NCBI GenBank assembly: GCA_018971685.1
Contig: JAGXAG010000005.1
Coordinates: forward strand, 1,842-65,841
Direction: 5' to 3'
DNA from: Patescibacteria group bacterium
Lineage (GTDB): Bacteria > Patescibacteriota > Minisyncoccia > Phycocordibacterales > PALSA-1337
DNA length: 64,000 nucleotides
The stretch's first letter is position 1, and each line of letters begins with the position of its first letter. The position numbers were made by a program, and so were the translations under genes. Shown here piece after piece: positions 30,884 through 56,132 of this stretch. Below the pieces are notes generated by a model. That model worked only from the letters and a program-made list of their open reading frames with translations. It was not told the origin of the DNA and did not search any database.

Positions 30884-30971
30884 TCTCTGAAACAGTTTTT
30901 TACCCGGCGTACTATATGGAGCAGTGCGCCGGCTTTTTGTATTCGACTTTTCCGTTCCGTGGTACAATACT

Positions 30972-33074
30972 ATGCATCAATCGTTCGCGGGAACGGCAAC
31001 CGCATTTAATTCAATGGACGAGAATCGCGTAACATATTTTGCGGAGACAGACGCGCGTAACAAGCGGGTCAAATTTGGCATAAAGAGCAAGGACAGGACC
31101 AAGCATCTGTACGCCATCGGCAAAACCGGCATGGGCAAATCCACCATGTTGGAAAACATGGCCGTGCAAGACATTCAGGCCGGAGAAGGAATGTGTTTCA
31201 TCGATCCGCATGGCAAGACCGCCGACCTGCTCTTGGAATATGTGCCCAAAGAGCGCGTGAACGATGTCATATACATCGCGCCGTTCGATACCGACTTTCC
31301 GATATCGTTCAATGTGCTCGAAAGCGTCGATCCGGACAAGAGGCACTTGGTGGTGTCTGGCCTCATGAGTACATTCAAGAAAATCTGGGTCGACGCCTGG
31401 TCCGCCAGAATGGAATACATATTGACCAACACCCTTTTGGCATTGCTCGAAGCGCCGGGTTCCACGCTTCTCGGCGTGAATAGGTTGCTGTCGGACAAGG
31501 AATACAGGAGAGACATCGTGTCGAAAGTGCAGGATCCGTCGGTCAAAGCTTTCTGGACCAAGGAGTTCGCCAATTACAGCGAACGCATGGCTCAAGACGC
31601 TGTGCCCGCCATCCAGAACAAAGTCGGCCAATTCACCGCGAACCCGCTCATCAGGAACATGATCGGCCAGCCGCAGTCGTCGTTTGATTTCCGCCAGGCG
31701 ATGGATAACAGGAAAATAGTCATTATCAACCTTTCCAAAGGCCGGGTCGGCGACGAGAACATGAAGCTTTTGGGCGGCATGCTGGTGACGAAGATTTATT
31801 TGGCGGCAATGTCCAGGGCCGATACGCCGGATCGTATAGCCAGGACTCTGCCGAACTTCTATTTGTTCGTCGATGAATTCCAGAACTTCGCCAACGCCTC
31901 GTTTGCCGATATTCTTTCGGAGGCCAGGAAGTACAAGCTGAATTTGACGATCGCGCATCAATATATCGAGCAGATGGACGAGGATGTGCGCGCGGCGGTC
32001 TTCGGCAATGTGGGCACGATGATAGCTTTTCGGGTCGGCGCGACCGATGCGGAAGCGCTGGAGAAGGAATTTGCGCCGACTTTCACGATCGAGGATTTGG
32101 TGAATCTTGGATTCACCCAAATTTACCTAAAGTTAATGATCGACGGCCTGACCTCGTCGCCTTTTTCGGCGGTGACTTTGCCGCCGATCGCGCACCCGGG
32201 TTCTTCATTTGTAAAAGAAATTATCGAGGCGTCTAGAACACAATTCGCGCGGCCGCGAGTAATGGTTGAAGCTGAGATAGTGAAATTCCACGAACCGACG
32301 CAGAAATCGGCGCGGTCTGCTATTCCCGCGCCCGCAGGCGAAGCGCTTGCCGGTTCGAGTCTGCGGAACTCGCGTCGTGAAGTTGCCAGGTTTTCGGGCT
32401 CGACAGCGCGACCCGAAAACCTGGCAACTTCTACGCCGCTCAAACAGAGTCCTCGACTCGAACCGGCAAGCGCTTCGCCTGCGGGCGCGGCTGACGCAAG
32501 TACTTCAGTCGCTGCCAATATTTCCACTGATTCCAAAACTTCATCAGCGCCGTCGGCAAAGACGGATACGGTTTCCGAACCCTCTTCGGAGACGGGTTGG
32601 AGACAAAATCCGCATACTACCGACTCCCCGCCGAGAAAAGGCGGCGACGGCGGGCGTCCTGTTGTTCCGCTGTCACCGACCGTGGGTGAGGGAAACCGTG
32701 TTCGTAGAGCCGAAAAGCGCGAAGAGCTTGGACAGCATAACCAACAACATATTTCACTATCGTCGCTCAGTCGCAATCAACCCAAGCGCGACCTGAAGAC
32801 GCAATCGAAAGAGAATGTCAGTCAATTGAGAAACGCCCTGCAAGCCGCGCTCGGCAAGACCGAACGCGCCGCGCCCACTTTCTCGCCGACCGATGCCGCC
32901 GCGTCCGTTCCAGCCACAGCGCCTGCCGCGACAACCCAAAATACAATTGCCTCACAACCCGTACGGCAAAACCAAGCACTTCAAAAAACACCTGAAATTC
33001 CAAAAGTTCCGAAAACCGATAAAGTTCCTGAAGTCCCCGAAGAAGTCTTGAAAAAGGTCTTGAAAGTTGATTGA
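30972..33074 (+). CDS. Soluble VirD4/TraD-like type IV coupling-protein-family ATPase with ~250-aa low-complexity C-terminal tail
   Basis: Walker A AIGKTGMGKST; Walker B FYLFVDEFQNF; LTIAHQYIEQMDEDVRAAVFGNVGTMIAFRVGATDAEALEKEF matches the T4CP C-terminal block. No N-terminal TM. An extended -10 TGGTACAAT lies just upstream. The start is ambiguous (30972 or 31014). Confidence 0.65.
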   Translation: MHQSFAGTATAFNSMDENRVTYFAETDARNKRVKFGIKSKDRTKHLYAIGKTGMGKSTMLENMAVQDIQAGEGMCFIDPHGKTADLLLEYVPKERVNDVIYIAPFDTDFPISFNVLESVDPDKRHLVVSGLMSTFKKIWVDAWSARMEYILTNTLLALLEAPGSTLLGVNRLLSDKEYRRDIVSKVQDPSVKAFWTKEFANYSERMAQDAVPAIQNKVGQFTANPLIRNMIGQPQSSFDFRQAMDNRKIVIINLSKGRVGDENMKLLGGMLVTKIYLAAMSRADTPDRIARTLPNFYLFVDEFQNFANASFADILSEARKYKLNLTIAHQYIEQMDEDVRAAVFGNVGTMIAFRVGATDAEALEKEFAPTFTIEDLVNLGFTQIYLKLMIDGLTSSPFSAVTLPPIAHPGSSFVKEIIEASRTQFARPRVMVEAEIVKFHEPTQKSARSAIPAPAGEALAGSSLRNSRREVARFSGSTARPENLATSTPLKQSPRLEPASASPAGAADASTSVAANISTDSKTSSAPSAKTDTVSEPSSETGWRQNPHTTDSPPRKGGDGGRPVVPLSPTVGEGNRVRRAEKREELGQHNQQHISLSSLSRNQPKRDLKTQSKENVSQLRNALQAALGKTERAAPTFSPTDAAASVPATAPAATTQNTIASQPVRQNQALQKTPEIPKVPKTDKVPEVPEEVLKKVLKVD
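32329..32489. repeat. Family-A hairpin element, in-frame copy inside the T4CP-like gene (32-bp perfect terminal inverted repeat)
   Basis: GCGCCCGCAGGCGAAGCGCTTGCCGGTTCGAG (32329-32360) is the exact reverse complement of 32458-32489. Inner stem GTTGCCAGGTTTTCGGG/CCCGAAAACCTGGCAAC around loop CTCGACAGCGCGA. Encodes ...PAGEALAGSSLRNSRREVARFSGSTARPENLATSTPLKQSPRLEPASASPAG... Confidence 0.7.
32633..32700. repeat. Family-B GC-rich repeat, in-frame copy in the T4CP-like gene
   Basis: ACTCCCCGCCGAGAAAAGGCGGCGACGGCGGGCGTCCTGTTGTTCCGC...CGTGGGTGAGGGAAACC is ~80 percent identical to 58881-58958 in secA. Confidence 0.55.
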
Positions 33075-34285: not shown

Positions 34286-34330
34286 CCTCAGTAATCGCGG
34301 CGCCAACACTATTATGCTAGACTTTGAATC

Positions 34331-35371
34331 ATGAAAATCTTGATTGCCACCGGCATTTATCCGCCTGATATTGGAGGCCCCGCCCAGTACGCCCGGAATC
34401 TCTATGAAACTTGGAAGAACGCCAAAGGCGCCGACGGCAAACCGCTTCATCGCGTAAAGGTAGCGGCGTATCGTTGGGAGCGTGCGTTTCCGCCAGGCGT
34501 GCGGCACTTGTTGTATTTATTGAAAGTAATCCGAAAAGGATGGGATGCGGATCTTATCTTGGTCTTAGATACCTGGTCGGCGGCGATGCCGGCGATGCAC
34601 GCATGCAATATTATGCATAAAAAATATGTTATCCGCACCGGCGGCGACTTTCTCTGGGAAACTTACGCCGAAAGGACCGGCGATCTGGTTAGATTTAAAA
34701 ACTTTTACGGAACGAGGATGGAAAAATTTTCCAGAAAAGAGAAATTGATTTTCAGGCTTGGCGGTCAGGCACTCCGTAAGGCGAAGGTGGTTATATTCAG
34801 TACGGCATGGCAAAAGGAAATATTCGAGAAGGCGTATGGTTTGGACCCTAGAAAGTCCGCGATCGTCGAGAATTATTGCGGCGAGAGATTGGAACCGACG
34901 GAACCGGAAAACCGCGCGTTCGTTGCCGCGACGCGACCGCTCAAATGGAAAAATGTTGAATTATTGAAAGAAGCGTTCGAGGCGGCGAGAGTCAAGGTCA
35001 AGAAGGCGGGTCTGCAAGATATTGAACTCGATACCGGCAAGGCGGTCTACGACAGCTTCGTGGAGAAAATAAGGCACTCGTATGCGGTTATTCTGGCGTC
35101 TTTGGGCGATATCAGTCCGAATATGATATTTGACGCAATACGCGCCGGCACGCCGTTTATTTTGACGAAAGAGACAGGGATTGCGGAGAGGGTCAAAGAT
35201 TGCGCGGTATTCGTCGATCCGGAAGACGAGAACGAGATCGCGGACAAAATTACATGGCTTTCCGAACCGGGCAACCGCGCGCGGCAGGCGGAGTTGGTGA
35301 GAAAGTTTTCTTGGAAACATTCGTGGCGGGAAATTGCGGATGAAATAGTAGCGGTTTGGGAAAAATTTTAA
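34331..35371 (+). CDS. Glycosyltransferase (GT-B, GT4-like)
   Basis: N-terminal MKILIATGIYPPDIGGPAQYARNL is typical of GT4 N-domains; ~345 aa. Confidence 0.65.
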   Translation: MKILIATGIYPPDIGGPAQYARNLYETWKNAKGADGKPLHRVKVAAYRWERAFPPGVRHLLYLLKVIRKGWDADLILVLDTWSAAMPAMHACNIMHKKYVIRTGGDFLWETYAERTGDLVRFKNFYGTRMEKFSRKEKLIFRLGGQALRKAKVVIFSTAWQKEIFEKAYGLDPRKSAIVENYCGERLEPTEPENRAFVAATRPLKWKNVELLKEAFEAARVKVKKAGLQDIELDTGKAVYDSFVEKIRHSYAVILASLGDISPNMIFDAIRAGTPFILTKETGIAERVKDCAVFVDPEDENEIADKITWLSEPGNRARQAELVRKFSWKHSWREIADEIVAVWEKF

Positions 35372-35387
35372 CTTAAACACTATACGC

Positions 35388-36548
35388 ATGAATAATGCAA
35401 GCAAGAAACTGTTAATGATCTCGTCGGACCGCGATATTTTCAGAGAGGACAGTGCGGTACGCGCGCGACAGGCGGAGTACGCGAAAAACTACGATGAAGT
35501 GCATATCGTGGTGTTCGAGAAACGAAATAGTCGGCGGACGCCGCCTCCCCCGTCGCAGGTGCCGCTAAGTGTCAAACGAGGCGATCCGCCAATCGGCGGA
35601 GAATGTGAGACACTATGTCGCGCTGAGGAGGGAGAGGCGGCTGACGCGGACGCGTTGTCGAATAACTGCTTTGCGTATTCGACGAGGTCATGGTCGAAAT
35701 TTCTTTATCCACTGGACGCTATAAGACTGGGCAGATTCATTGTCGATAGGAGACATATAGACGAAGTCACTTGCCAGGATTCGGTCGCGGCGGTGGCGGG
35801 AATTTCGCTGAAAAAACAATTTGACATTCAGCTTGAAATTCAGGTCCATGAAGATATCGGCAGTCCTTACTATGCGACGAATGTGATGCGCAAAATCCGC
35901 AAGTATCTTTATCTGTCGTATTTGCCGAAGGCGGACAAAATAAGGGTGGTTTCGGACAGGATCAGACTGTATCTTATCGATGCATTCGGCCGGAATAGTG
36001 AGGCGGGCGGCATAAATGATCCCGAGCTTGCCTCAAAGATTGAAGTCAGGCCGATCGCCGTCGATGTCGAAAAGATAAAGAGCGCGCCGATTTTGGAAGG
36101 CGCGGATCTGCGGCGGAAATATCCGCAGTTCGAAAAGATTGTCTTGATGGCCTCGAGGTTGGAGAAAGAGAAAAATATCGAGCTCGCAATTCATTCATGG
36201 AAAAAGGTGGTTGAGAAGATTCCAAGGGCGGGATTGATAATAGTTGGCCGCGGCTCGTTGCTCGCAAACCTTAAATCGTCAACCATAAATCTCGGCCTAG
36301 TCGATTCTGTCATCTTCGAAAATTGGATTGACCGGCCGACTCTCTTTTCGTACTATAAAACCGCCGACTTATTACTAAACACTTCACTGTTCGAAGGCTA
36401 TGGCATGGCGCTGGTCGAGGCAAAAGCGGCGGGATGCAGGATTGTATCGACGGATGTCGGGGTGGCGAAGGAGGTGGGGGCGGAGATTGTTGGGCGGGAT
36501 GAAAAAGCGGTTACTAATGCCATTATTCTAATTTTAGAAAAATTATGA
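35388..36548 (+). CDS. Glycosyltransferase family 1/4 with a Pro-rich N-terminal insert
   Basis: SLFEGYGMALVEAKAAGCRIVSTDVGVAKEV. Insert RRTPPPPSQVPLSVKRGDPPIGGECETLCRAEEGEAADADA is encoded by GC-rich hairpin-forming DNA. Confidence 0.8.
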   Translation: MNNASKKLLMISSDRDIFREDSAVRARQAEYAKNYDEVHIVVFEKRNSRRTPPPPSQVPLSVKRGDPPIGGECETLCRAEEGEAADADALSNNCFAYSTRSWSKFLYPLDAIRLGRFIVDRRHIDEVTCQDSVAAVAGISLKKQFDIQLEIQVHEDIGSPYYATNVMRKIRKYLYLSYLPKADKIRVVSDRIRLYLIDAFGRNSEAGGINDPELASKIEVRPIAVDVEKIKSAPILEGADLRRKYPQFEKIVLMASRLEKEKNIELAIHSWKKVVEKIPRAGLIIVGRGSLLANLKSSTINLGLVDSVIFENWIDRPTLFSYYKTADLLLNTSLFEGYGMALVEAKAAGCRIVSTDVGVAKEVGAEIVGRDEKAVTNAIILILEKL

Positions 36549-37489
36549 AGGAAAATCTAAAGAATAAGAAAATCGCAGTTATAGGAGGGGCCGGATTTAT
36601 CGGTTCGCACATTGTCGAAGCGCTTGTCAAGATCGGGTCGAAAGTGATCGTGATAGATGACCTGTCTACAGGTAACATTGATAATATAAATGAGGTAAAA
36701 GATGTTATTGAGTTTGTGCGGCAATCTGTCGTTGATACAGACAAACTGGCCGATTTATTGACGGGAGTAGACATGGTCTGCCATCAGGCAGCTTTGCCGT
36801 CTGTTCCTAAAAGTATAAATTTGCCAATGGAGACTAACGCCGCCAATTTGACCGGCACGCTTTCGATGTTTACTGCCGCCGTTAAGGCCAAAGTGCCGCG
36901 CGTGGTTTACGCTTCTTCAAGTTCCGTATACGGCAATACCCCCGTTTTGCCAAAGGTCGAAACGATGCCGGCAAATCCGCTGTCGCCTTATGCCGCACAA
37001 AAATTTGGCGGGGAAATATATGCCAAGATTTTTCATTCGCTCTACGGGTTGGAAACGATCGGTCTGAGATATTTCAATGTTTTTGGTCCTAAGCAAAATC
37101 CAAATTCCGAATACGCGGCGGTCGTGCCGAAATTTATCTCGTCTATGAAGAGGGGTAAACGGCCTGTCATATACGGCGACGGCACACAGACCAGGGATTT
37201 CACTTTTGTAGACAATGTGGTAGCGGCGAATCTGGCGGCGCTTTCATCTAGCGGCGGCGCCGGAGAAGTCTTCAATATAGCGAGCGGCGGCAGAATATCG
37301 CTCAATGAACTTATGTCGAAATTGAATTCGTTGCTGGCCGTGAATATCAAGCCGGAATATGCGAATCCGAGGATAGGCGACATCAAAGACAGCTATGCCG
37401 ATATTTCCAAGGCTGGTAAAATTCTGGGCTACAGACCGGAAGTCTCTTTTGACGAGGGGCTAAAAAAGACGATAGAGTGGTATTCATGA
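36545..37489 (+). CDS. NAD-dependent sugar-nucleotide epimerase/dehydratase (UDP-hexose 4-epimerase-like SDR)
   Basis: KKIAVIGGAGFIGSHIVEAL (GxxGxxG), YASSSSVYG and YAAQK (YxxxK) motifs. Confidence 0.85.
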   Translation: MKENLKNKKIAVIGGAGFIGSHIVEALVKIGSKVIVIDDLSTGNIDNINEVKDVIEFVRQSVVDTDKLADLLTGVDMVCHQAALPSVPKSINLPMETNAANLTGTLSMFTAAVKAKVPRVVYASSSSVYGNTPVLPKVETMPANPLSPYAAQKFGGEIYAKIFHSLYGLETIGLRYFNVFGPKQNPNSEYAAVVPKFISSMKRGKRPVIYGDGTQTRDFTFVDNVVAANLAALSSSGGAGEVFNIASGGRISLNELMSKLNSLLAVNIKPEYANPRIGDIKDSYADISKAGKILGYRPEVSFDEGLKKTIEWYS

Positions 37490-38406
37490 AATTACTCATC
37501 ATCACCCAAAAAGTAGACAAGGACGACCCGATCCTGGGCTTTTTTCACCGCTGGATAGAGGAATTCGCCAAGAGGTTCGAAAAGGTGACAGTCGTATGCT
37601 TGGAGAAAGGTCGGAATGAATTGCCGGCCGAAGTGAAAGTGCTGTCGCTAGGCAAAGAAAACGGCCGCTCGAGGATGAAGTATTTGGCCTGGTTCTATAG
37701 GTATATTTGGCAAGAACGCAAGAATTACGACGCGGTCTTCGTGCATATGAATCAGGAATATGTCATTTTGGGCGGTCTTGTCTGGAAGCTATTTGGCAAG
37801 AAGGTAGCGCTGTGGAGGAATCATCGCAAGGGGAATTGGCTGACTCGCCTGGCGGTGTCGCTTGCCGATATTGTTTTCTACACTTCGCCGCAATCATTCA
37901 CGGCCGGGTTCAAGAAGGCCATGATGATGCCTGTAGGCGTAGATACCGATCTGTTCAGACCGCATCCGGAGATAGAGCGCAACCCGAATTCCATATTGTT
38001 CCTAGGGCGGATATCGCCGGTAAAGAGAGTGGATGTTTTCGTCGAGCGCCTGAAGGAGATGCGGCGGGCGGGCAAACCATTCACGGCTACTATAGTTGGA
38101 AGTCCGACGGATAGGGACGGCGCGTATCACGAGAAAATAAAGAAGATGATAAGTGATTACAGCCTGGGCGATCTCGTAATCATGAAGCCGGCCGTGAAGC
38201 ATGAGGATACGGTCGGGTATTACTGCAGTCACGAAATATACGCGAATTTTACTGAAATCGGCAGTATGGACAAGACTATATTTGAAGCGGCTGCCTGTGG
38301 AGCCAAGGTGGAGACGGAAAACGGGATTATATGGAAAGATGTCGATCTGAAGGGTCAGGGATTAGAGAGGCTTGCCGATAAAATCACACATGAAATATCT
38401 GCTTAA
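37477..38406 (+). CDS. Glycosyltransferase (GT-B)
   Basis: ILFLGRISPVKRVDVFVERL and EIGSMDKTIFEAAACGAKV (GT1 C-domain E-x7-E-like). Confidence 0.6.
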   Translation: MVFMKLLIITQKVDKDDPILGFFHRWIEEFAKRFEKVTVVCLEKGRNELPAEVKVLSLGKENGRSRMKYLAWFYRYIWQERKNYDAVFVHMNQEYVILGGLVWKLFGKKVALWRNHRKGNWLTRLAVSLADIVFYTSPQSFTAGFKKAMMMPVGVDTDLFRPHPEIERNPNSILFLGRISPVKRVDVFVERLKEMRRAGKPFTATIVGSPTDRDGAYHEKIKKMISDYSLGDLVIMKPAVKHEDTVGYYCSHEIYANFTEIGSMDKTIFEAAACGAKVETENGIIWKDVDLKGQGLERLADKITHEISA

Positions 38407-40225: not shown

Positions 40226-40234
40226 TTTCTTGAT

Positions 40235-40831: not shown

Positions 40832-40838
40832 AGAATCC

Positions 40839-41954: not shown

Positions 41955-41958
41955 ATAT

Positions 41959-44300: not shown

Positions 44301-44352
44301 TCGGCCAATCCTGGCTCTACCGATTTTCGTCCATGTATGATAATGTCCTTTC

Positions 44353-46259: not shown

Positions 46260-46288
46260 AACGATAATAGTCGTATATACTTTGATTT

Positions 46289-49142: not shown

Positions 49143-50371
49143 AGCGATTTCAATTGGTCGATGAATGAGGCGGCGCGATGATATGTCGTATGCTTTTCGA
49201 ATACCTCTTTCTGTGCCGCGAGCGCGTGCCTGGTACCGATGTCAGGATTATGGATTATATTCTCGAAATGCGCCAGGTATGCTTCAGGCGTATCGGCGAT
49301 GAAAAGCGAGTCAGGGCCGAATATTTTATCGAGCAGCTTGGCATGGTCGGTCACTTGCGGCACGCCGCAGGCAGCCAGTTGGTATGTCCTTTCATTTGTC
49401 TCACAGGGCCAATTGATTTGTTCCGGCAAGTGCAGATTGAGTCCGACTTTCGCCCGAGCATAGACATAACGATCTCTGTCACGATTGAATCTGAATTTTT
49501 TTATGCGTTCCCAACCGGGTCCATCGATGAATCCAGGATATTCGGTCATTATCGGTGATAAAAAATCCAGCATAGCGGGCTTCGAGCTCTGCTTTGAGGC
49601 CAAGTATACATAATTGAGGTCGCGCTCGAATCCGGCGACAGGGAAGTAGCGGCTTATGTGCGCGCCGAAAGGCATGAAGAGCACTTTGTATCCAGCGTCA
49701 AAGAATGGCCGGTATTCTTTCCGTGAATGGATGTATTCCGGATCGCGGAACGAATAATAGAAATCGACGCTGTGAGCTTTGGCCCAAGCCAATCTGCCGG
49801 CCAATGGCGAATTCCCGTATTCCTCGAGGGAAGCGGTCAGTCCAATCTTCAGATGATGAATCTTTTTCCGATCTTTGACCGTTCGCCAGTCTATCTTTTC
49901 CAAGTAGCTCGCGTGATCGCTCGTGAGGAGAATGGTCGGCTTAAAAGAATCCAAGATCGGGCCTATCGGCTCATTCCAGTCAAGCTCTTTGGTTGGTACG
50001 CCAATGAACTCAAAGGCCTCTTTGAAATTCGTGAACAAGGAATAACCGGCTGGCGATATATTCTGGTCAGGTATGTGGATGACGATGCGTTCAAAGTGTC
50101 GGTTTTCGAGTATGCCGCTGAATTCCGTTTCAATCTTCTTTTTCAGCGTATGTCCTTGAATGACAATCGGATCGTTCGAAACCCCGTAGGCTTCTTCCGA
50201 TTCGTATGAGCCGCGATCGGCGAGGGCCAATTCCGCGTTTGCCAATATGCCGGCCCGATTTTTCCAAGTATCCTTTTTTATGCGATCCTCAAAAACGGTT
50301 TTATGCCACGCATGGTCTGGCCGACCCAGGATCTTTTTTATGTAATGTTTTGTATATCTGTTGAATTTCAT
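49139..50371 (-). CDS. CgeB-like/Glyco_trans_1_2-type glycosyltransferase
   Basis: C-terminal LNLHLPEQINWPCETNERTYQLAACGVPQVTDHAKLLDKIFGPDSLFIA...HTTYHRAASFIDQL resembles the CgeB/DUF3880 family. Confidence 0.5.
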   Translation of the reverse strand: MKFNRYTKHYIKKILGRPDHAWHKTVFEDRIKKDTWKNRAGILANAELALADRGSYESEEAYGVSNDPIVIQGHTLKKKIETEFSGILENRHFERIVIHIPDQNISPAGYSLFTNFKEAFEFIGVPTKELDWNEPIGPILDSFKPTILLTSDHASYLEKIDWRTVKDRKKIHHLKIGLTASLEEYGNSPLAGRLAWAKAHSVDFYYSFRDPEYIHSRKEYRPFFDAGYKVLFMPFGAHISRYFPVAGFERDLNYVYLASKQSSKPAMLDFLSPIMTEYPGFIDGPGWERIKKFRFNRDRDRYVYARAKVGLNLHLPEQINWPCETNERTYQLAACGVPQVTDHAKLLDKIFGPDSLFIADTPEAYLAHFENIIHNPDIGTRHALAAQKEVFEKHTTYHRAASFIDQLKSL

Positions 50372-50381
50372 CTGCTATTGC

Positions 50382-51110
50382 TCAAGGTTTGACGAACCAA
50401 AAACAGCCGCAGCCGTAAGATTGCTTGTCGGCGAACGCAGGGTCGGCCTTCGGTATTAAGCCGACTTTTTCTCCATTGTCAGGCACCATGCTAAAATCTT
50501 TAAGCTCGAACCCGTCAAACATGCTCATAACCATATCGTAAGAATAAATACGATGGGCGTTGAAAATTATTTGCGGTTTGCCTATAGGGACAACGAAAAG
50601 TATAGTACCTCCGTGAGCCGCGACCCTTTTTAGTTCCATGACGGCCTTAAGATCGCCTTCAGGATCTAGCGGATCCCCATATCGCCCCAGACCAATATGT
50701 TCTATTACATGCATACATGATAAAGAATCGATGCTATTGTCCAGGAATGGCAAAGCCGTCAAGTCAGCACGCTTTGATGTAAGGTTGCTGAGCCTGATGT
50801 TGGCGGGCCGGTAATCATAAAAATCGACAGGTATAAAGGCTGAAACTATTGAACAAAAATATAGCGTTGAAGAGAAATCAACATGCTTTGCCGGTTTTGT
50901 TACGGCCAAGATACGAGCGGCCCATGAGGGATGATATATATAATGGGCGTCAAAGCGTGTTTCCGTATCATTTTCATACATAGCCTGATGTTCTCGCCAT
51001 GACAGATGGAATGGACGGTTTGATGAGATCATATTTTTAAATACATCAAAATCACGGCGAAGTTTTCGGTTTAGAGAACCTCTATATATTATTTTTCGCA
51101 ATACCTTCAT
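50382..51110 (-). CDS. DUF268-like putative SAM-dependent methyltransferase
   Basis: LSCMHVIEHIGLGRYGDPLDPEGDLKAVMELKRVAAHGGTILFVVPIG. Confidence 0.55.
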   Translation of the reverse strand: MKVLRKIIYRGSLNRKLRRDFDVFKNMISSNRPFHLSWREHQAMYENDTETRFDAHYIYHPSWAARILAVTKPAKHVDFSSTLYFCSIVSAFIPVDFYDYRPANIRLSNLTSKRADLTALPFLDNSIDSLSCMHVIEHIGLGRYGDPLDPEGDLKAVMELKRVAAHGGTILFVVPIGKPQIIFNAHRIYSYDMVMSMFDGFELKDFSMVPDNGEKVGLIPKADPAFADKQSYGCGCFWFVKP

Positions 51111-51685
51111 TTTGGGATGATAGTTATCATATCGTCTTTAATTGATGACCTGTACCCATTTTTTGTGGCTAGTTCAAATACAGCTTTTTGAACAGGATAA
51201 TTGTTAGTTCCGTCGAACAGCCTAGCGTCGTCAATCAATATTACATGTCGGCGCACGGGGTGAGACATGATTGCTTGGAGCTCTTTTACGATCGGAGTAT
51301 CTATTTGTCCGCGGGCAGTGATACCGCCAGAGTAATGTCCGTCTAACCAAAATAATGCAGGCTCCACGAGCTCGTTTATTACTGTGGGCAATATCACACC
51401 ACTATCTCCTTTGTATAAGCGGACATTTCGGTATTGCGCAAAGCGTCTTTGCGCTGCGATGAACAGATCTGTATCAAGCTCTATAGATATCACGGAAGCG
51501 AACATGTCTTTGGCCCGATTGAGCGTATCTCCCAGGTATGTTCCTGTTTCAATGAATATTTCGGTACCATAGCGCTTCCGAAGCCTGTATATAGTCTTTA
51601 TTTTAACTTCGAATAAGGCGGGATGTTTTCCATCAGTCATCGCTTTTCGTATACGAGACAGTGATTCCGATAATATAGACATCAT
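51107..51685 (-). CDS. Class I SAM-dependent methyltransferase (FkbM/TylF-like)
   Basis: EIFIETGTYLGDTLNRA...VISIELD...WLDGHYS. Confidence 0.55.
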   Translation of the reverse strand: MMSILSESLSRIRKAMTDGKHPALFEVKIKTIYRLRKRYGTEIFIETGTYLGDTLNRAKDMFASVISIELDTDLFIAAQRRFAQYRNVRLYKGDSGVILPTVINELVEPALFWLDGHYSGGITARGQIDTPIVKELQAIMSHPVRRHVILIDDARLFDGTNNYPVQKAVFELATKNGYRSSIKDDMITIIPK

Positions 51686-52941
51686 CGGTATTCGTGATCA
51701 AGATTCCATTCCGAAATAGCATTCATAGGGCCCCTGTTTTCCTGTATAGTCATTTGTTTGCCGTGCGGGCTGACTTCAAGGACGGCCTGGTATGGTTCGT
51801 AGTAGCTTATCTCCTTGTCGCGCGTTATGCCTAAGCCGATATGATAATTGCCCGGGCGCAGCATATGTTCTATTTTTACATCAAATTCGTGCCGGCCCGG
51901 TTCCAATGTCTCGCCGGCGTGCTCTTTTTGGTCTGAGTTTCTGACAATGAATAACAATTGATCGTTTAAGCTATTGCATGAAATAGCAAAGTTCATGTTC
52001 TCTAACCGCTCATTCACTTCTATGGAAAGCTTAAGATGAATCGGTTGATCATAGGCGATACCGAATGTACCGATCATACCATCGACGAGCTCAATTGAGG
52101 TTATTTTGTACCCTTTTCCCGCGAACGCATCAGATTCTGGTATTACCTTATGGGCAGTGCGGCTTACATTGAGATAATGGCTTATGATATCCCTCGTGTC
52201 ACCGGTCATGGCCACGCGCCCTTTTTCGAGTAGCACCGTTTTCTTGCAGAGTCGTTCGATTGCTGACATTGAATGGCTGACGAATATAATGGTCCGGCCG
52301 TCTTTGTGTGTAACCTCCTCCATTTTATTCAGACACTTGCGTTGAAATTCCGCATCGCCAACGGCCAAGACCTCGTCAACAAGCAAAATATCCGGCTCCA
52401 TATGCGCCGCGACTGAGAATGCCAATCTCACATACATGCCGCTTGAATAGTACTTGACCGGCGTGTCCAAAAACTTCGATATGCCCGCGAAATCAACGAT
52501 TTGGTCGAATTTTCGGGATATTTCTCGTTTGGTCATGCCGATAATGGCTCCGTTTAGGAATATATTCTCGCGCCCGGTTAATTCTGGATTGAAACCGGTA
52601 CCAACCTCCAAAAGTGATCCGACCTTGCCGCGGATGATTACCTCGCCTTTGGTCGGGGGAGTTATTTGCGAAAGAATCTTGAGCAATGTTGATTTGCCGG
52701 CGCCGTTGTGGCCTATGATGCCTATAACATCCCCGCGGTTGATTTCAATATTTATGTTATCAAGAGCCCAAAATTCTTCTTTCTTCTCGAATCCTGCCAC
52801 AGTCCGTGCCTTCTCTTTGACGAAAGAAAAAGGACTTTTGATGACATTCATGATCACATCCCGCAACGCTATATAGCCACCCCTCTCATGAGAGATCTTG
52901 TAACTTTTCGATATGCTTTTTATTTCGATGACTGGTTTCAT
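51682..52941 (-). CDS. Polysaccharide ABC transporter ATP-binding protein (Wzt/TagH-like) with ~170-aa C-terminal beta-rich extension
   Basis: GIIGHNGAGKSTLLKIL (Walker A), YSSGMYVRLAFSVA (ABC signature), ILLVDEVLAVGD (Walker B). The likely start is the ATG at 52941 (MKPVIEIKSISKSYK), not the listed 53010. Confidence 0.85.
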   Translation of the reverse strand: MKPVIEIKSISKSYKISHERGGYIALRDVIMNVIKSPFSFVKEKARTVAGFEKKEEFWALDNINIEINRGDVIGIIGHNGAGKSTLLKILSQITPPTKGEVIIRGKVGSLLEVGTGFNPELTGRENIFLNGAIIGMTKREISRKFDQIVDFAGISKFLDTPVKYYSSGMYVRLAFSVAAHMEPDILLVDEVLAVGDAEFQRKCLNKMEEVTHKDGRTIIFVSHSMSAIERLCKKTVLLEKGRVAMTGDTRDIISHYLNVSRTAHKVIPESDAFAGKGYKITSIELVDGMIGTFGIAYDQPIHLKLSIEVNERLENMNFAISCNSLNDQLLFIVRNSDQKEHAGETLEPGRHEFDVKIEHMLRPGNYHIGLGITRDKEISYYEPYQAVLEVSPHGKQMTIQENRGPMNAISEWNLDHEYR

Positions 52942-53762
52942 ACGATATCTGCGAAATATCTTTCGACCTTTTTGAACATATATACTCCTGCAACAAGCAA
53001 GATCACACACCCCATGAACGATATTGCCAAAAGAAACCAGTTGATCGGCGCCGTGCCCAAGAGCGCGGCGCGAGCGTTTTGGATGACGCCGGTCATGGGG
53101 TTTATGGCTAACAGTTTGGAATATTTTCCAGCAATCGATGCCGGATATATTACCGGGGTGACAAACAGGAGTATTTGTACGAAGTAAGGTAATACATAAC
53201 GAACATCCCTGTATTTAACATTAATTGCTGCCAGGAATAGGCCGCCGCCGACCGAAGCCATGAATGTGATGACAAGCAATAGCGGTATCATAAGAAGTCC
53301 GGTGAAGCTCGGCATGAACCCGTAATATATCATGAGTCCGACCATGATTATCGCGGCTATGAAGAAATCAACAAGTTGGGTAATGACCGAAGATATCGGC
53401 AATATTAGGCGCGGGAAGTAGACTTTGGTGATCAGGGCCTGATTGCCAACCAATGAATTGGCCGTGCCGGAAAGAGCCGCGGAGAAGAATTGCCAGAATA
53501 ATAGACCTGTGTATACAAAGATTGGATAGGGCACATTGTCAGAGGGTATTTTTGCCAGACCGCCGAAGAAGACCGAAAAGACCACCATAGACATGAACGG
53601 CTGGAATACGGCCCATGCCGCTCCTATAAAGGTTTGCTTGTATCTGACTTTAAGATCACGCCAGGTAAGGAAATATAGTAGCTCCTTGTATATCCATAAC
53701 TCTTTCAGATCCGACAGGTGGAATATTTTCTTGGGGCGGATGACTGTTACTTGTGTGGACAT
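52938..53762 (-). CDS. ABC-2 type polysaccharide export permease (Wzm-like)
   Basis: Six TM helices; LVGNQALITKVYFPRLILPISSVITQLVDF is the ABC-2 signature. Confidence 0.85.
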   Translation of the reverse strand: MSTQVTVIRPKKIFHLSDLKELWIYKELLYFLTWRDLKVRYKQTFIGAAWAVFQPFMSMVVFSVFFGGLAKIPSDNVPYPIFVYTGLLFWQFFSAALSGTANSLVGNQALITKVYFPRLILPISSVITQLVDFFIAAIIMVGLMIYYGFMPSFTGLLMIPLLLVITFMASVGGGLFLAAINVKYRDVRYVLPYFVQILLFVTPVIYPASIAGKYSKLLAINPMTGVIQNARAALLGTAPINWFLLAISFMGCVILLVAGVYMFKKVERYFADIV

Positions 53763-53876
53763 GCGGCTATCCTATCACATTACAAAGTCGTTGTTGAGCT
53801 TTTGTCTGCCATGATATATGATAGTTTCATTACTCTAAGCCGCACGACGATTAGTCGCGGAATTACCATAACGCAC

Positions 53877-56132
53877 ATGACCATCAAAAAAACCACTCGC
53901 TTTGTAACGATCGCCGCTCTCTTCCTCGTCCCCATTTTCGCTCTGATCGTAGCCAACTCGCTCTTTTTCCCGTTTATTACCGGCAAGGCATTCTATTTCC
54001 GCCTCATGGTTGAGATCGCTTTCGCCGCCTGGGTGATTCTGGCTTTTCTTGATGCCAGATACCGGCCGAAGCTGAATGCTCTCACGGTCGGCGTGACACT
54101 TTTTACTGTTGTCGCCCTCATTGCCGACCTTCTGGGCGTGAATCCGATCCGAAGCATGTGGTCCAATTTCGAACGCATGGAGGGCTGGATAACGATCGTT
54201 CATCTGTGGGCGTTCTTCATCGCGGCGGCGGCGGTGTTCGGCGCGGAAGGGGAGGCGAAAAAGTGGTGGCATCGGTTCTTCAATTTCGAATTGGCGGTGG
54301 CTTTTGTCGTCGGGCTTTACGGCTTGGGACAATTGCTCGGCTGGTTCGCGATCCATCAGGGTTCGACCAGGATCGACGCGTCGCTGGGCAATGCGGCGTA
54401 CATGGCGGTTTACATGCTCATGAACGCCGGTTTGGCGGCGTACTTGTTCCTGGCGGAAAAGGCGAAGCGCGCGGCGGCAAAATCGCCGGGCATTTCATTC
54501 ATGGGCTGGATATATATTGTTCTTACCGTACTCTTTTCTTTCCTCCTCTTTGAAACTTCCACTCGCGGCACGATTCTCGGCTTTACCGGCGGACTCATGC
54601 TGGCGCTTTTCCTCTATGCGCTTTTTGCCAAGAATGGATCCAAGCGGTCGCGCATGATCTCAGGCGGCGTCGTGGCGCTCATTGTGATCGCGGGCATCGG
54701 CATTTACGCTTTGCGCAACCAGCCGATCGTCAAGAACAACGAGGTCTTGAACCGCATGACGAGCATTTCCTTGAGCAATACCGAGTCGACGGCGCGCCTT
54801 TATATCTGGCAAATGGCTCTGACCGGCTGGACCGAAAGGCCGGTTTTGGGTTGGGGCCAGGAGAATTTCAACTACATCTTCAACGCCAATTACAATCCGA
54901 AAATGTGGTCGCAGGAGCAGTGGTTCGATCGCGCGCACAGCGTATACTTCGACTGGCTGGTGGCTGGAGGGTTGGTGGGACTCATGGCTTATCTCGCGCT
55001 GTATGTATTGTTGTTGCGCGGAATTTGGAAATCGGGATTTACCATGTCCGAAAAGTGCGCCTTGACCGGACTGGTGGCCGGCTACGCGGTGCACAACATA
55101 TTTGTGTTCGATAACTTGGCGAGCTATGTCTTGTTCTTTACTCTGCTCGGATTCGTTGCGTCGATAAAATCCTCCGCTGCTTTGCGGCACCCCCTTTTGC
55201 AAAGGGGGAATTCATCGCAAGAATCTTTCACTAACGGCGCTTCAACCATAGGCGGAACGAAGGAAGTCAGGCCCGAGATAGTCGAATATGTGGTGGCGCC
55301 GATATCGATCGTCGCCTTGGTTATCGTGATTTTCTTCTTTGAACTGCGCCCATACCAAGCCAATACCGCTCTTATCACCGCTTTGCAATCATGCTCCGGA
55401 CCGACGCCGGACGCTACATTGTTCGACAAGGCGCTTGCCGTGAACACTTATGTTGCCAACCAGGAAATCCGCGAGCAGTCGCTCTCTTGCGCCGGTTCGG
55501 TCATCGGAAGCCAGAGTGCGCCCGGACCGACGAAGCAGGCTTTCTTCCAGTTGGCCGTGAATAATATCCAGGCTCAGATTGCCGCCACGCCGAAAGATGC
55601 GAGGATGTATGTGCTCGGCGGCGGATTCTTGCTGGGTGCGGGACAAAACGCGCAAGCCCTGCAGCTGCTCGTCGACGCGCACGCGCTGTCGCCGGCCAAA
55701 CAGTCGATTGATTTTCAATTGGCGCAAGCGTATTTGAATGCCGGCCAGATACCGGAATCAGTGGCGGTATTGCGGCAAGCCTATGAAGGCGATCCGTCGT
55801 ATGGCGAAGCGCGCTCGGCCTATGCCACCGGGTTGGTTCTGACCGGGCAGGAAAGTTTGGCGCACCAATTGTTCGGCGACGATCCGGCGGTATTCCAGAC
55901 CGAGCAGATGGCGGGCGTATATGCCAACCTGAAGCAATACCAAAAAGCGATCTCGATCTATGTTGCGCTCATCAAAAACAGCCCGACGGATGTCAACTTG
56001 CTTTCCAGGCTTGCGCAAATACAATACGCGGCGGGCATGAAGACGCAAGCGATTGCGACCTTGCGCAGTATTGAGAAGGATCATCCGGAATACAAAGACC
56101 AGATCGAGGCGGCGATCAAGCAGGTGCAGTAG
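53877..56132 (+). CDS. O-antigen ligase/Wzy_C-domain polytopic membrane protein fused to C-terminal TPR repeats (candidate glycan ligase/O-oligosaccharyltransferase)
   Basis: About 12 TM helices with a large loop (Wzy_C-like); the C-terminal ~250 aa carry TPR-like repeats (AQAYLNAGQIPESVAVLRQAYEGDPSYGEA...). The start is taken at the ATG at 53877; the listed 53718 start overlaps Wzm. Confidence 0.65.
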   Translation: MTIKKTTRFVTIAALFLVPIFALIVANSLFFPFITGKAFYFRLMVEIAFAAWVILAFLDARYRPKLNALTVGVTLFTVVALIADLLGVNPIRSMWSNFERMEGWITIVHLWAFFIAAAAVFGAEGEAKKWWHRFFNFELAVAFVVGLYGLGQLLGWFAIHQGSTRIDASLGNAAYMAVYMLMNAGLAAYLFLAEKAKRAAAKSPGISFMGWIYIVLTVLFSFLLFETSTRGTILGFTGGLMLALFLYALFAKNGSKRSRMISGGVVALIVIAGIGIYALRNQPIVKNNEVLNRMTSISLSNTESTARLYIWQMALTGWTERPVLGWGQENFNYIFNANYNPKMWSQEQWFDRAHSVYFDWLVAGGLVGLMAYLALYVLLLRGIWKSGFTMSEKCALTGLVAGYAVHNIFVFDNLASYVLFFTLLGFVASIKSSAALRHPLLQRGNSSQESFTNGASTIGGTKEVRPEIVEYVVAPISIVALVIVIFFFELRPYQANTALITALQSCSGPTPDATLFDKALAVNTYVANQEIREQSLSCAGSVIGSQSAPGPTKQAFFQLAVNNIQAQIAATPKDARMYVLGGGFLLGAGQNAQALQLLVDAHALSPAKQSIDFQLAQAYLNAGQIPESVAVLRQAYEGDPSYGEARSAYATGLVLTGQESLAHQLFGDDPAVFQTEQMAGVYANLKQYQKAISIYVALIKNSPTDVNLLSRLAQIQYAAGMKTQAIATLRSIEKDHPEYKDQIEAAIKQVQ
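55184..55213. repeat. Family-C small hairpin element (CCCCCTTT-TGC-AAAGGGGG) in-frame in the Wzy_C-TPR gene
   Basis: GCGGCACCCCCTTTTGCAAAGGGGGAATTC is the near reverse complement of 60714-60742 in secA. Confidence 0.5.

Follow-up and report, generated by a model that had tools for sequence, protein, structure and literature searches.

What is assembled by a long glycan gene cluster with an ABC exporter in a bacterium that resembles a monoderm, and to what is the product attached? This question is raised by positions 33071-56132 of the window, as we call the whole 64,000-nucleotide stretch of DNA analysed here. A preliminary description presented this region as a contiguous ABC-transporter-type (Wzm/Wzt) glycan cluster ending in a Wzy_C-TPR enzyme, and the ORF listing and the Pfam matches bear this out. 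The region holds 22 contiguous ORFs (g01-g22) with short or overlapping junctions, and 20 of these genes were typed by Pfam as functioning in glycan assembly, tailoring or export. Pfam typing found neither a Wzx gene nor a Wzy-polymerase gene in the cluster, which agrees with the expectation for an ABC-dependent route. Almost every label of the preliminary description agrees with Pfam, and the cluster is not made of TagF-type or peptidoglycan-only enzymes. Since positions 33892-60685 are 100% identical to four contigs from three independent assemblies (Logan SRR32006849, Logan SRR32006850 and NCBI JAGWKR010000008.1), the cluster is neither an assembly chimera nor split by mis-assembly.

The host is an ultra-small Patescibacteria/CPR bacterium of a Paceibacteria-type, monoderm-type lineage, as the preliminary description had guessed from its monoderm-like appearance: its 16S rRNA carries insertions (NCBI MAG GCA_028865255.1), and the NCBI protein identical to the ligase g22 (P0001) is labelled 'Patescibacteria group bacterium'. 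An ordinary diderm LPS O-antigen cluster, with WaaL ligating the chain to its acceptor, lipid A-core, would contain the same classic components, namely Wzm/Wzt, a GT9 enzyme and a WaaL-fold ligase. However, Patescibacteria are a lineage without LPS and an outer membrane, and Pfam typing of the large ORFs of the window found no lpx, lpt, kdo or bam genes across the 64 kb, so that the early impression of no outer-membrane or LPS genes holds. Moreover, the GT9 match is weak, and WaaL lacks both the additional helix and the TPR domain of the present ligase. We consider this explanation scarcely credible.

By strand, the cluster is laid out in two blocks, a left + strand module (g01-g12) and a right - strand module (g13-g21); a few gene starts were shortened following gene calls on independent contigs (L001, L085). 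The left module begins with g01 (33071..34285, +), a GT4-type glycosyltransferase of GT-B fold (Glycos_transf_1 123.6 bits, Glyco_transf_4 59 bits), whose start overlaps by 4 nt the stop of a gene for a TraG/VirD4/HerA-like P-loop ATPase (30924..33074, +; TrwB_AAD_bind 27.9 bits, TraG-D_C 25.9 bits). This ATPase, a 43%-identical homologue of which borders the glycan locus in L026 on its left side, is a flanking gene and at most a possible member of the pathway. Farther left is a DUF4015 glycoside-hydrolase-like gene at 28830-30257. Next come g02 (34331..35371, +), a weakly GT4-like enzyme (Glyco_trans_1_4 29.4 bits against a cut-off of 27; 346 aa on L001), and g03 (35388..36548, +; Glycos_transf_1 86.4 bits), which is indeed a glycosyltransferase but of GT4 type and not GT1 as first labelled, because Pfam Glycos_transf_1 ('group 1') corresponds to CAZy GT4. 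The gene g04 (36545..37489, +) encodes an extended SDR, an NAD-dependent sugar-nucleotide 4-epimerase/dehydratase (Pfam Epimerase 197 bits); its NCBIfam scores for TviC (249.6 bits) and GalE (174 bits) are both under the equivalog cut-offs, and it is closest to TviC/WbpP-type UDP-HexNAc(A) 4-epimerases.

The module continues with g05 (37486..38406, +, the ORF starting at 37477), a GT4-like glycosyltransferase (Glycos_transf_1 37.9 bits, Glyco_trans_4_2 26.4 bits; 306 aa on L001), and g06 (38390..39172, +, the ORF starting at 38372), a CE4 polysaccharide N-deacetylase (Polysacc_deac_1 77 bits; IcaB/PgaB-type models about 82 bits, below cut-off). No obvious signal peptide was seen in the g06 translation, and the deacetylase is probably cytoplasmic. 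The GT9-family glycosyltransferase g07 (39167..40210, -) matches Glyco_transf_9 in its C-terminal half only (41.7 bits) and scores 41.9 bits against the heptosyltransferase I model, the cut-off of which is 185. It is followed by a class-I SAM methyltransferase, g08 (40235..40831, +; Methyltransf_23 51 bits, Methyltransf_11 43 bits), and by three GT4 glycosyltransferases: g09 (40908..41954, +, the ORF starting at 40839; Glycos_transf_1 86 bits; 348 aa on L001), g10 (41959..43059, +; Glycos_transf_1 94.7 bits, Glyco_transf_4 55.7 bits) and g11 (43056..44300, +; Glycos_transf_1 107.6 bits, Glyco_transf_4 91 bits), the last of which has identical protein copies on 6 contigs. The last gene, g12 (44353..45426, +), encodes an FkbM-family methyltransferase (Methyltransf_21 63.5 bits, residues 48-202 of 357) that is extended at its C-terminus by about 150 aa.

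In the right module, g13 (45423..46259, -) is a short epimerase/reductase-like SDR (Pfam Epimerase 69.6 bits) with weak NCBIfam matches, such as 46 bits to GDP-L-fucose synthase against a cut-off of 500. The g14 protein (46289..47326, +), described at first as GT-A-like, has no significant match of its own in Pfam, NCBIfam or PDB; its family occurs in 6 related loci, and a representative from another species matches GNT-I (23 bits) and GT2 (22 bits) weakly, so that a GT-A-fold glycosyltransferase is possible. The genes g15 (47323..48288, -; Glycos_transf_2 141.5 bits; 321 aa on L085), g16 (48261..49142, -; Glyco_transf_11 101.3 bits) and g17 (49139..50371, -; PF13524 56.2 bits) encode a GT2, a GT11-family and a CgeB-like (Glyco_trans_1_2) glycosyltransferase, respectively. 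The DUF268 SAM methyltransferase g18 (50382..51110, -; DUF268 69.3 bits, Methyltransf_11 25.5 bits), homologues of which (57-62% identity) adjoin the exporter in L013, L046 and L065, is a candidate chain-modifying or chain-terminating enzyme. Homologues of the 192-aa protein g19 (51107..51685, -) also adjoin the exporter (L019, L060, L065). Its methyltransferase label found no backing in Pfam or NCBIfam, where it has no match, or in PDB, where the best hit has E=1 (dimethyladenosine transferase); what it does have is an IETGTYLGD motif resembling a SAM-binding site.

The gene content bears unevenly on the predicted composition of the glycan. The term 'fucosylated' has as its basis the membership of g16 in GT11, the family of alpha-1,2-fucosyltransferases, which is present in 12 of 50 related loci, but the cluster has no gmd or fcl gene. 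Similarly, 'heptose-rich' can draw on the 42-bit match of g07, but ADP-heptose genes were not found. A methyl cap is plausible; however, it is not specifically indicated, since methyltransferases are no commoner in related loci with Wzm/Wzt (0.78 per 10 kb) than in those with Wzx (1.61).

The exporter is encoded by g20 (51682..52941, -), a Wzt with an ABC ATPase (ABC_tran 82 bits; 419 aa on L085) and a C-terminal Wzt_C domain of the carbohydrate-binding type (38 bits against a Pfam cut-off of 30.4), and by g21 (52938..53762, -), the Wzm ABC-2 permease (ABC2_membrane 59 bits). Across 17 species, the Wzt ATPase domain has a mean identity of 73% and Wzm one of 71%, whereas the Wzt C-terminal domain has one of only 17%. 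The same split is known from E. coli O8/O9a, where the carbohydrate-binding domain of Wzt is serotype-specific (Cuthbertson et al. 2005, 2007, as cited in PMC2943079). Between wzm and the divergent ligase gene lie 114 bp (53763..53876) with one promoter-like match on the + strand (53794-53822), promoter-like matches over the whole intergenic region being not clearly above chance.

The ligase gene g22 (53877..56132, +; ORF start 53718) encodes 751 aa with the WaaL (Wzy_C) fold followed by a C-terminal TPR domain some 260 aa long, in keeping with the early call of a Wzy_C ligating enzyme. Because thirteen TM helices are predicted, the TPR domain is predicted, from hydropathy and a predicted model, to be extracellular. 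Five residues (R230, R259, R307, R352 and H354) and a motif H-S-x9-G-x2-G are invariant and lie in or beside an 81-residue external loop, and the TPR domain has two invariant cysteines, C506 and C538. It resembles the TPR of OGT, a likeness that proves nothing about the ligand of the ligase, TPR domains being generic. Membership in the PglL family was ruled out, since Pfam detected neither PglL_A nor Wzy_C_2 in the ligase at E<=0.01.

The main point of this locus, overlooked in the preliminary description, is that a hypervariable glycan site lies beside a lineage-wide ligase. Throughout the lineage the ligase belongs to the conserved core: its mean identity between species (55%) is about equal to that of MurB (57%), and the order ligase-murB-secA-obg is kept in several hundred species. 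In the window, this right-flank backbone (murB, secA, an AI-2E transporter and obg; 56961..63592, +; Pfam) has the same gene order after the ligase as in most of 80 related loci. By contrast, about 50 related species carry a different gene set at the equivalent site, and only 5% of genes in the 10 kb upstream of the ligase are common between species, against 24% downstream. The cluster thus looks like a fast-changing 'serotype' cassette, peculiar to the strain or species, within a pathway for surface glycoconjugates.

The exporter itself changes too. Among 50 species, 18 have Wzm/Wzt, 18 Wzx and 6 a fused ABC exporter, so that 42 have an exporter of lipid-linked glycans within 10 kb upstream of the ligase; 8 have none within 10 kb and still conserve the ligase. 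In 28 species exporter and ligase are directly adjacent, divergently transcribed in 26 of these 28, with a median gap of 99 bp. This proximity is far above chance for genomes of about 0.9 Mb, and its recurrence across three unrelated exporter types speaks for ligase and cluster being linked in function. That one conserved enzyme accompanies all three types of locus also fits a shared last step, that is, a ligase and not a polymerase. Such conservation would fit an enzyme that accepts a range of glycans and whose acceptor is itself conserved.

These data also bear on whether ligation by the neighbouring enzyme is needed at all. The product might instead be an exopolysaccharide or capsule that is released or held only loosely at the surface, or g01-g12 and g13-g21 might be two unrelated pathways, as the division by strand would allow. 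Indeed, g12-g21 is the only block common to another species (L065, 47-86% identity), and the CE4 deacetylase and the DUF4015 gene recall EPS systems. Nevertheless, Pfam typing finds a single exporter for the entire 23 kb, and the conserved ligase-exporter pairing favours ligation. The KpsE/KpsD-type partners that diderm capsule ABC-2 exporters require are absent, although this is irrelevant in a monoderm. We judge these possibilities improbable.

If the chain is ligated, its acceptor might lie in the cell wall. Peptidoglycan-linked wall polysaccharides, such as streptococcal rhamnose polysaccharides and mycobacterial galactan, suggest a route in which Wzm/Wzt exports the chain, an LCP-family phosphotransferase encoded elsewhere attaches it, and the Wzy_C-TPR enzyme is a core envelope enzyme with a different role that happens to be encoded beside the locus. 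The best NCBIfam matches of Wzt are consistent with this, being teichoic-acid and galactan exporters (PRK13545, teichoic acids export ATP-binding subunit, 219 bits; galactan exporter 197 bits; TagH 178 bits; all below cut-off), as are the synteny of the ligase with murB and its conservation in the 8 species without a nearby exporter. In addition, a 118-aa PG_binding_1 ORF (56252..56608, +; 52.7 bits) follows the ligase. This ORF has no signal peptide and starts inside a repeat, and is possibly a remnant; 3' of it is the sole strong terminator-like hairpin (56725-56739), and larger PG_binding_1 surface proteins adjoin the ligase in L020 and L045. However, Pfam typing finds no LCP gene in the window, the adjacency of exporter and ligase (28 of 50 species; 42 of 50 within 10 kb) persists through three unrelated exporter types, and we know of no Wzy_C enzyme that acts on peptidoglycan. 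A wall polysaccharide made in this way is therefore also improbable.

Alternatively, the Wzy_C-TPR enzyme might ligate the exported chain to a membrane glycolipid, giving a lipoglycan or lipoteichoic-acid-like 'O-antigen of a monoderm'. The nearest solved structure to the ligase is the lipid-acceptor ligase WaaL, a lipid would naturally be conserved between species, as the ligase is, and no acceptor protein gene conserved beside the ligase was found in the related loci. A dedicated, conserved glycolipid anchor is nevertheless less obvious if the lipids are scavenged, as is thought of CPR bacteria. There is a monoderm precedent in TacL, a Wzy_C protein that joins Und-PP-linked teichoic chains to a glycolipid, Glc-diacylglycerol in the pneumococcus (PMC5727136). 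On the other hand, TacL and WaaL, each of about 400 aa, have neither the additional helix nor the conserved external TPR domain of 260 aa, and a Wzy_C domain with a C-terminal TPR is the architecture reported for the protein O-oligosaccharyltransferases WsfB (S-layer) and PglL (pilin) (PMC2943079). A glycolipid acceptor is thus a serious alternative, though the less likely one, and by these analogies we favour a protein or S-layer acceptor.

The search for partners proposed in the preliminary description did not extend the pathway at either end. No initiating WecA/WbaP-type transferase was found in the cluster or window, where the sole PF00953 protein, which scores 176 bits against mraY and 34 bits against WecA, is MraY. 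No MraY/WecA-family gene occurs in any of 84 related loci, and Bac_transf is not among the top 25 recurrent neighbouring-gene families listed from a scan of all but 65 of the proteins. No S-layer or pilin gene is adjacent, and the sole nearby acceptor candidate is the PG_binding_1 ORF.

We infer the following order of steps. A phosphoglycosyltransferase encoded elsewhere would start the glycan at the cytoplasmic face on a carrier, presumably polyprenyl phosphate, and seven GT4-type enzymes together with the GT2, GT9, GT11 and CgeB-like transferases would extend it. The two SDRs would tailor sugar nucleotides, CE4 would de-N-acetylate, and three to four methyltransferases would O-methylate the chain. 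The finished lipid-linked chain would leave through Wzm/Wzt, the hypervariable Wzt C-terminal domain recognising a structure-specific feature, most likely the non-reducing terminus. Outside the membrane, the conserved WaaL-fold enzyme would take the chain en bloc off the carrier and join it to a conserved acceptor. For this acceptor we favour Ser/Thr/Tyr of a secreted surface protein, such as an S-layer protein, a pilin or a protein bound to the wall, which the extracellular TPR domain would present. We give the core of this model, in which Wzm/Wzt brings a lipid-linked glycan across the membrane and g22 passes it to an acceptor of whatever kind, a probability of about 0.8; the version with a protein acceptor is more tentative, falling somewhat short of an even chance.

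Among known systems, the slg clusters, which serve S-layer protein O-glycosylation in two likewise monoderm hosts, Geobacillus stearothermophilus NRS 2004/3a and Paenibacillus alvei CCM 2051T, also pair Wzm/Wzt with a Wzy_C-TPR-type enzyme (PMC2943079). They share cytoplasmic lipid-linked assembly with several glycosyltransferases and methylation, export through Wzm/Wzt, in which Wzt is proposed to bind the modified end of the chain, and a final Wzy_C transfer with TPR, the latter being part of the enzyme in WsfB but standing apart, as WsaA, in Geobacillus (PMC2943079). Unlike them, the present cluster has no WbaP/WsaP-type initiator, rml genes or S-layer structural gene in or beside it, and its ligase is a core gene fixed by murB-secA, not a cluster-specific one, which sister species pair with Wzx or fused-ABC exporters. 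The E. coli O8/O9a-type pathway, an ABC-transporter-dependent route to O-polysaccharide in which the chain end is recognised, has the same Wzm, conserved Wzt ATPase domain and hypervariable Wzt_C, an initiating enzyme encoded outside the cluster, a variable gene set at a fixed chromosomal site and, in WaaL, a ligase of this fold with conserved Arg/His residues. Here, however, lipid A-core and the outer membrane are absent, no WbdD-like kinase/methyltransferase terminator was identified in the cluster, and the ligase adds a 13th helix and the external TPR domain. PglL/PilO(TfpO) of Neisseria, Pseudomonas and Acinetobacter share the Wzy_C catalytic domain, an essential-type His and relaxed glycan specificity, the last suggested here by one ligase serving many clusters, and PglL also has a C-terminal TPR motif (PMC2943079); the present enzyme differs in lacking PglL_A/Wzy_C_2, in its monoderm host and in having no adjacent pilin gene. 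Finally, TacL, the lipoteichoic-acid ligase of Streptococcus pneumoniae, is likewise a monoderm Wzy_C membrane enzyme. It moves a polymer linked to Und-PP onto a conserved acceptor on the outer side of the membrane, as proposed here, but it has 397 aa and no TPR domain (PMC5727136). The polymer that it handles is a teichoic acid of Wzx type (TacF), whereas Pfam typing finds no TagF, LicD or choline genes here.

CPR/Patescibacteria are ultra-small, mostly uncultured episymbionts, in which the cell surface determines host attachment and the infecting phages; to our knowledge, almost nothing has been learned about their surface glycans. Our reading, to which we give a probability of about one half, is that the Paceibacteria-type CPR bacteria as a group have a serotype system that resembles O-antigen but does without LPS. 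In it, a ligase with a WaaL fold and TPR domain, universal and of housekeeping grade, would be fixed beside murB-secA, and an adjoining recombination hot-spot would swap whole glycan cassettes together with their mode of export (by Wzm/Wzt, by Wzx or by a fused ABC exporter), with each species or strain carrying a different surface glycoconjugate that governs host-cell attachment and phage susceptibility.

The cluster in the window (33071-56132) consists, in the ORF map, of 22 densely packed genes that overlap or are separated by short gaps. Pfam typing identifies seven GT4-type transferases (at 33071, 34331, 35388, 37477, 40839, 41959 and 43056, the second being a weak match), an SDR epimerase (36545), a CE4 deacetylase (38372), a weakly matching GT9-family enzyme (39167, minus strand), a class-I methyltransferase (40235), an FkbM methyltransferase (44353), a short SDR (45423, minus strand) and an ORF with no Pfam assignment (46289). 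The minus strand then carries a GT2 (47323), a GT11 (48261), a CgeB-like transferase (49139), a DUF268 methyltransferase (50382), a 192-aa ORF with no Pfam assignment (51107), Wzt with its Wzt_C domain (51682-52941) and Wzm (52938). The last gene, starting at 53877, encodes a 751-aa protein with Wzy_C and TPR domains, hereafter called the ligase; its start and that of wzt were refined by gene calls on identical contigs.

The gene list of the preliminary description is essentially correct, with three exceptions in the labels: its "GT1" is the Pfam "group 1", i.e. CAZy GT4, and "GT-A-like" for the ORF at 46289 and "MTase" for the ORF at 51107 are without statistical support, since searches confirmed neither a GT-A enzyme nor a methyltransferase. 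The cluster is not split by mis-assembly, which is excluded because window 33892-60685 is 100% identical to independent contigs from two Logan assemblies and NCBI MAG GCA_028865255.1 (JAGWKR010000008.1). A seemingly broken DUF268 gene on one identical contig is a gene-calling artefact, the DNA being 100% identical to that of the window. Neither promoter-like sites (35 against a shuffled expectation of 25.6±5.0) nor terminator-like sites (19 against 18.5±4.1) are clearly above expectation, and the sole convincing terminator-like feature is a hairpin at 56725-56739.

The 16S rRNA gene (window 1780-3702) measures 1923 nt where the model has 1533 positions, with internal insertions at about 2000-2350 and 3265-3335. 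It is followed in the window by no 23S gene and only by tRNA-Leu(CAG) and tRNA-Ile(GAT) (4367-4449 and 4541-4614); an enlarged 16S gene without a following 23S gene is typical of CPR bacteria. The window also encodes a DUF5671 protein, together with rpoB and rpoC genes of compact size. An NCBI protein of "Patescibacteria group bacterium" is identical to the ligase, and all 80 related loci from species-representative genomes belong to Patescibacteria MAGs, labeled mostly Paceibacterota, Parcubacteria, Taylorbacteria or Nomurabacteria and in some cases Saccharibacteria. This affiliation, together with the absence of Pfam matches to LPS or outer-membrane machinery among the large window ORFs, bears out the earlier impression of a monoderm-like organism; the lineage is, as far as we know, without LPS. 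Directly upstream of the 16S gene, an ORF6N-domain protein (1020-1601; KilA-N/antirepressor-like, 114 bits) may be a mobile-element remnant.

The ligase combines a Wzy_C domain (79.1 bits against a Pfam cut-off of 31.7) with matches to TPR_19, TPR_14 and related families. Its AlphaFold model, which was calculated from a 30-sequence alignment (pLDDT 83, pTM 0.79), shows the WaaL fold of 12 TM helices, in which TM9 and TM10 are joined by a large external loop. According to hydropathy and the model helices, an intracellular N-terminus is followed by nine TM helices, an external loop of 81 residues (280-360) that contains the conserved motifs WGQENFN and WFDRAHS, three more TM helices, a poorly conserved basic linker (437-471), a 13th helix (472-490) and a 260-residue helical/TPR domain. 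Since the chain begins inside the cell and crosses the membrane a 13th time, the TPR domain should be extracellular in this predicted topology. Residues R230, R259, R307, R352, H354, C506 and C538 are invariant; in both the 30-sequence set and a 20-sequence set, the four arginines are accompanied by an invariant motif, H354-S-x9-G365-x2-G368, which matches H-[NSQ]-x9-G-x2-[GTY], presumably the conserved motif of V. cholerae and E. coli WaaL. A role as a functional LPS ligase with a lipid A-core acceptor nevertheless appears unlikely, because the window contains no LPS genes and the lineage is known to lack LPS. Neither PglL_A nor Wzy_C_2 is matched in the ligase at E<=0.01 (Pfam), and for this reason we do not file it as a member of the PglL family.

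More than 2,500 database hits were obtained for the ligase family, the best 120 at 52-66% identity, and species-representative genomes contain it in at least 586 stretches. Downstream of the ligase gene, related loci have murB, secA, in many cases an AI-2E transporter gene, and obg, in the same order as in the window (56961-63592). The ligase is conserved to the same degree as MurB (mean identity 55% vs 57%), with 67% in its external loop and 49% in its TPR domain. The window SecA (58238-61267) has 1009 aa versus about 850 aa in relatives, the surplus being an insertion or an extension. The secA of the closed genome OY969557.1 (L003/L012 13739-16426) is broken into at least four ORFs, probably due to long-read indel errors.

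The upstream side was compared among 50 species loci whose upstream sequence extends over 9 kb or more. Their 474 upstream genes form 240 families, 168 of which are singletons, and two loci share on average 5% of their genes upstream versus 24% downstream. Recurrent upstream families comprise exporters (Wzm, Wzt, Wzx and fused ABC exporters), transferases (GT2, GT4, GT11 and GT17), methyltransferases (FkbM, DUF268 and class-I), sugar-nucleotide SDRs, DegT aminotransferases and nucleotidyltransferases. AsnB-like amidotransferases, NeuB and B12-radical-SAM enzymes also belong to these recurrent families, as do, occasionally, TagF-like and PMT_2 enzymes. Export is by Wzm/Wzt in 18 loci (including L065, whose pair was masked from the automatic count by overlapping ORFs), by Wzx in 18 and by a fused ABC exporter in 6, and no exporter was seen within 10 kb of the ligase in 8. 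The exporter gene directly adjoins the ligase in 28 of the 50 loci and is divergent in 26, the median gap being 99 bp.

The adjacency of ligase and cassette is common, not universal: in L068 and L070, members of the ligase group farthest removed (about 37% identity), the 10 kb upstream hold a shared series of small genes without any exporter or glycosyltransferase, yet the ligase is kept. A comparison with L065 gave no clear signal that the right half of the cluster was acquired recently by lateral transfer, and this idea was rejected, as the identity ranges of cluster genes (47-86%) and right-flank backbone genes (46-73%) overlap; our claim for this half is restricted to patchy presence. In the cassettes of other species, NeuB (nonulosonic-acid synthase), B12-binding radical-SAM enzymes and AsnB-like amidotransferases were observed (L078 8393-9958; L023, L041 and L084; L046 3544-5058; L051 3697-5529), the NeuB of L078 being fused to a GNAT domain. 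Given these genes, sialic-acid-like sugars, as well as unusual residues of C-methyl or amidated type, are probably present in some Paceibacteria glycans.

On the left, the gene for a 716-aa TraG/VirD4/HerA-like P-loop ATPase (window 30924-33074) shares 4 nt with the first glycosyltransferase gene. Another species locus, L026, has a 43%-identical homologue (16-1056) at the left edge of its cassette of about 9 kb and a 970-aa paralogue (17814-20726) between secA and obg. Since a TraG-like ATPase stands at the left edge in both loci, it may mark a conserved left boundary of the variable site. A 475-aa DUF4015 protein (28830-30257, 281 bits), a putative glycoside-hydrolase-like TIM barrel encoded about 2.8 kb upstream of the cluster, could process a polysaccharide.

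The genes for Wzm (ABC2_membrane, 59 bits) and Wzt (ABC_tran, 82 bits) overlap by 4 nt, and Wzt_C (PF14524) is matched at residues 299-413 of the 442-aa Wzt ORF with 38 bits against a cut-off of 30.4. Among 17 species, the mean identity is 71% for Wzm and 73% for the Wzt ATPase domain, versus 17% (range 5-67%) for the Wzt C-terminal domain, which scores as Wzt_C in the window and in one relative. The same division between a conserved transporter core and a variable C-domain is found in E. coli O8/O9a Wzt, whose serotype-specific carbohydrate-binding C-domain recognizes the capped chain end, according to work cited in a review of S-layer glycosylation (PMC2943079). This split conservation supports structure-specific, probably terminus-coupled export, and the hypervariable C-domain suggests a serotype-like specificity.

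The split does not show, however, that the cap is methyl, as had been proposed. The cluster contains four or five methyltransferase-like genes, none of which resembles WbdD, and the DUF268 gene and the 192-aa ORF adjoin wzt. As a marker of Wzm/Wzt loci, methyltransferases fail: they are not enriched there and are, if anything, commoner in Wzx-type loci (1.61 versus 0.78 genes per 10 kb). The predicted fucosylated, heptose-rich composition likewise derives from family names only, as the cluster lacks gmd and fcl (GDP-fucose) and ADP-heptose pathway genes, and the GT9 match is weak. As no signal peptide is evident in the CE4 enzyme, any de-N-acetylation probably takes place in the cytoplasm.

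Neither the cluster nor the 64-kb window encodes an initiating phosphoglycosyltransferase of the WecA/WbaP type, for which the preliminary description had proposed to look. The sole PF00953 protein (23954-25081) was considered as the missing WecA and is MraY (176 bits for MraY vs 34 bits for WecA), located among mur genes. No MraY/WecA-family gene occurs in 84 related loci, and Bac_transf is not among the recurrent neighboring families in the best 25 of 138 families, with 65 proteins outside the scan. The initiating enzyme is presumably encoded elsewhere, just as wecA lies outside the O-antigen cluster for many E. coli O-antigens. The peptidoglycan block that contains mraY (19367-27126) also encodes a MurD-like ligase, a Mur ligase (21803-23248), an unassigned 256-aa ORF, an ATP-grasp enzyme (25930-27126) and, at 23245-23949, a possibly Fem-like protein with a weak match to ATE_C (Arg-tRNA-protein transferase C-terminal domain). 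The block suggests a non-standard stem peptide or cross-bridge.

In the mechanism that we propose, the glycan would be built in the cytoplasm on a polyprenyl carrier, tailored by epimerization, de-N-acetylation and O-methylation, and exported by Wzm/Wzt with recognition by the variable Wzt C-domain; the conserved WaaL-fold/TPR enzyme would then move it en bloc onto a conserved cell-surface acceptor. The ligase role is preferred to that of a Wzy polymerase because ABC-dependent chains are finished before export, because one conserved enzyme accompanies three export modes and unrelated glycosyltransferase sets, and because the fold and motifs match WaaL.

As for the acceptor, we tentatively favor a secreted protein, in view of the predicted external TPR domain and the precedent of WsfB and PglL, O-oligosaccharyltransferases for which the S-layer review (PMC2943079) describes the same pairing of Wzy_C with C-terminal TPR motifs as in the window ligase. 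A glycolipid acceptor is a serious, somewhat less probable rival: pneumococcal TacL, a 397-aa Wzy_C enzyme, joins Und-PP-linked teichoic chains to a glycolipid (PMC5727136). Enzymes of this type have about 400 aa and no extra domains; the window ligase, which shares Wzy_C with them, has 751 aa with an extra helix and a TPR domain. Separately, PG_binding_1 proteins adjoin the ligase in three species (window 56252-56608; L020 13623-15422; L045 6432-9991). The window ORF may be a remnant, given its length of only 118 aa, the lack of a signal peptide and its start inside a repeat. In the L020 protein, a signal peptide and an NHL beta-propeller are combined with an S/T-rich linker and a PG_binding_1 domain at the C-terminus. 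As candidate glycosylation acceptors, these surface proteins are a lead and no more.

If the overall reading is true, LPS-style logic, with a fixed ligase and swappable Wzm/Wzt or Wzx cassettes, is at work in a lineage without LPS. The closed chromosome of a relative is 876,331 bp long; in a genome of similar size, the 23-kb cassette would make up about 2.6%, and such cassettes would be among the largest variable investments in genomes of about 0.9 Mb. One conserved ligase with a WaaL fold and predicted external TPR domain is a marker gene that flags the site in several hundred species, and the adjoining cassette can serve in metagenomes as a readout of the glycan "type". The locus is a concrete, testable and widely usable handle on the surface chemistry of a major uncultured radiation, and the ligase would be of possible glycoengineering interest if proven to be a promiscuous O-oligosaccharyltransferase. 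In a non-exhaustive literature search, we found no description of this CPR ligase or locus, nor of a lineage-wide fixed Wzy_C-TPR ligase in CPR beside a hypervariable cassette site with interchangeable export modes. One source contains a general remark that CPR genomes encode numerous glycosyltransferases and reports "O-antigen" sugar-nucleotide genes in Patescibacteria phages (PMC12911398); the latter agrees with a glycan receptor under diversifying selection.

Several known systems resemble the locus in part. The S-layer clusters of Geobacillus and Paenibacillus use Wzm/Wzt, as stated in PMC2943079. The window cluster is without two features expected of such an slg cluster and its surroundings, namely an initiating enzyme like WbaP and a structural gene for the S-layer: no Bac_transf match or large secreted protein was found among the window ORFs. 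The teichoic-acid pathway (TagGH with TagF/TagB/TagD) differs in its Glyphos_transf CDP-glycerol/ribitol phosphotransferase and cytidylyltransferase, which are absent from the window cluster; Glyphos_transf occurs in 2 of 150 neighboring genes of other species. Wall polysaccharides of the RGP/GAC/galactan type depend on a LytR-CpsA-Psr ligase, which the locus lacks, there being no LCP domain in any large window ORF. The PglL family differs from the window ligase in having PglL_A and Wzy_C_2. The locus is not mechanistically exotic: its parts are individually of known kinds, and its pathway logic matches that of Gram-positive S-layer glycosylation and ABC-dependent O-antigen synthesis.
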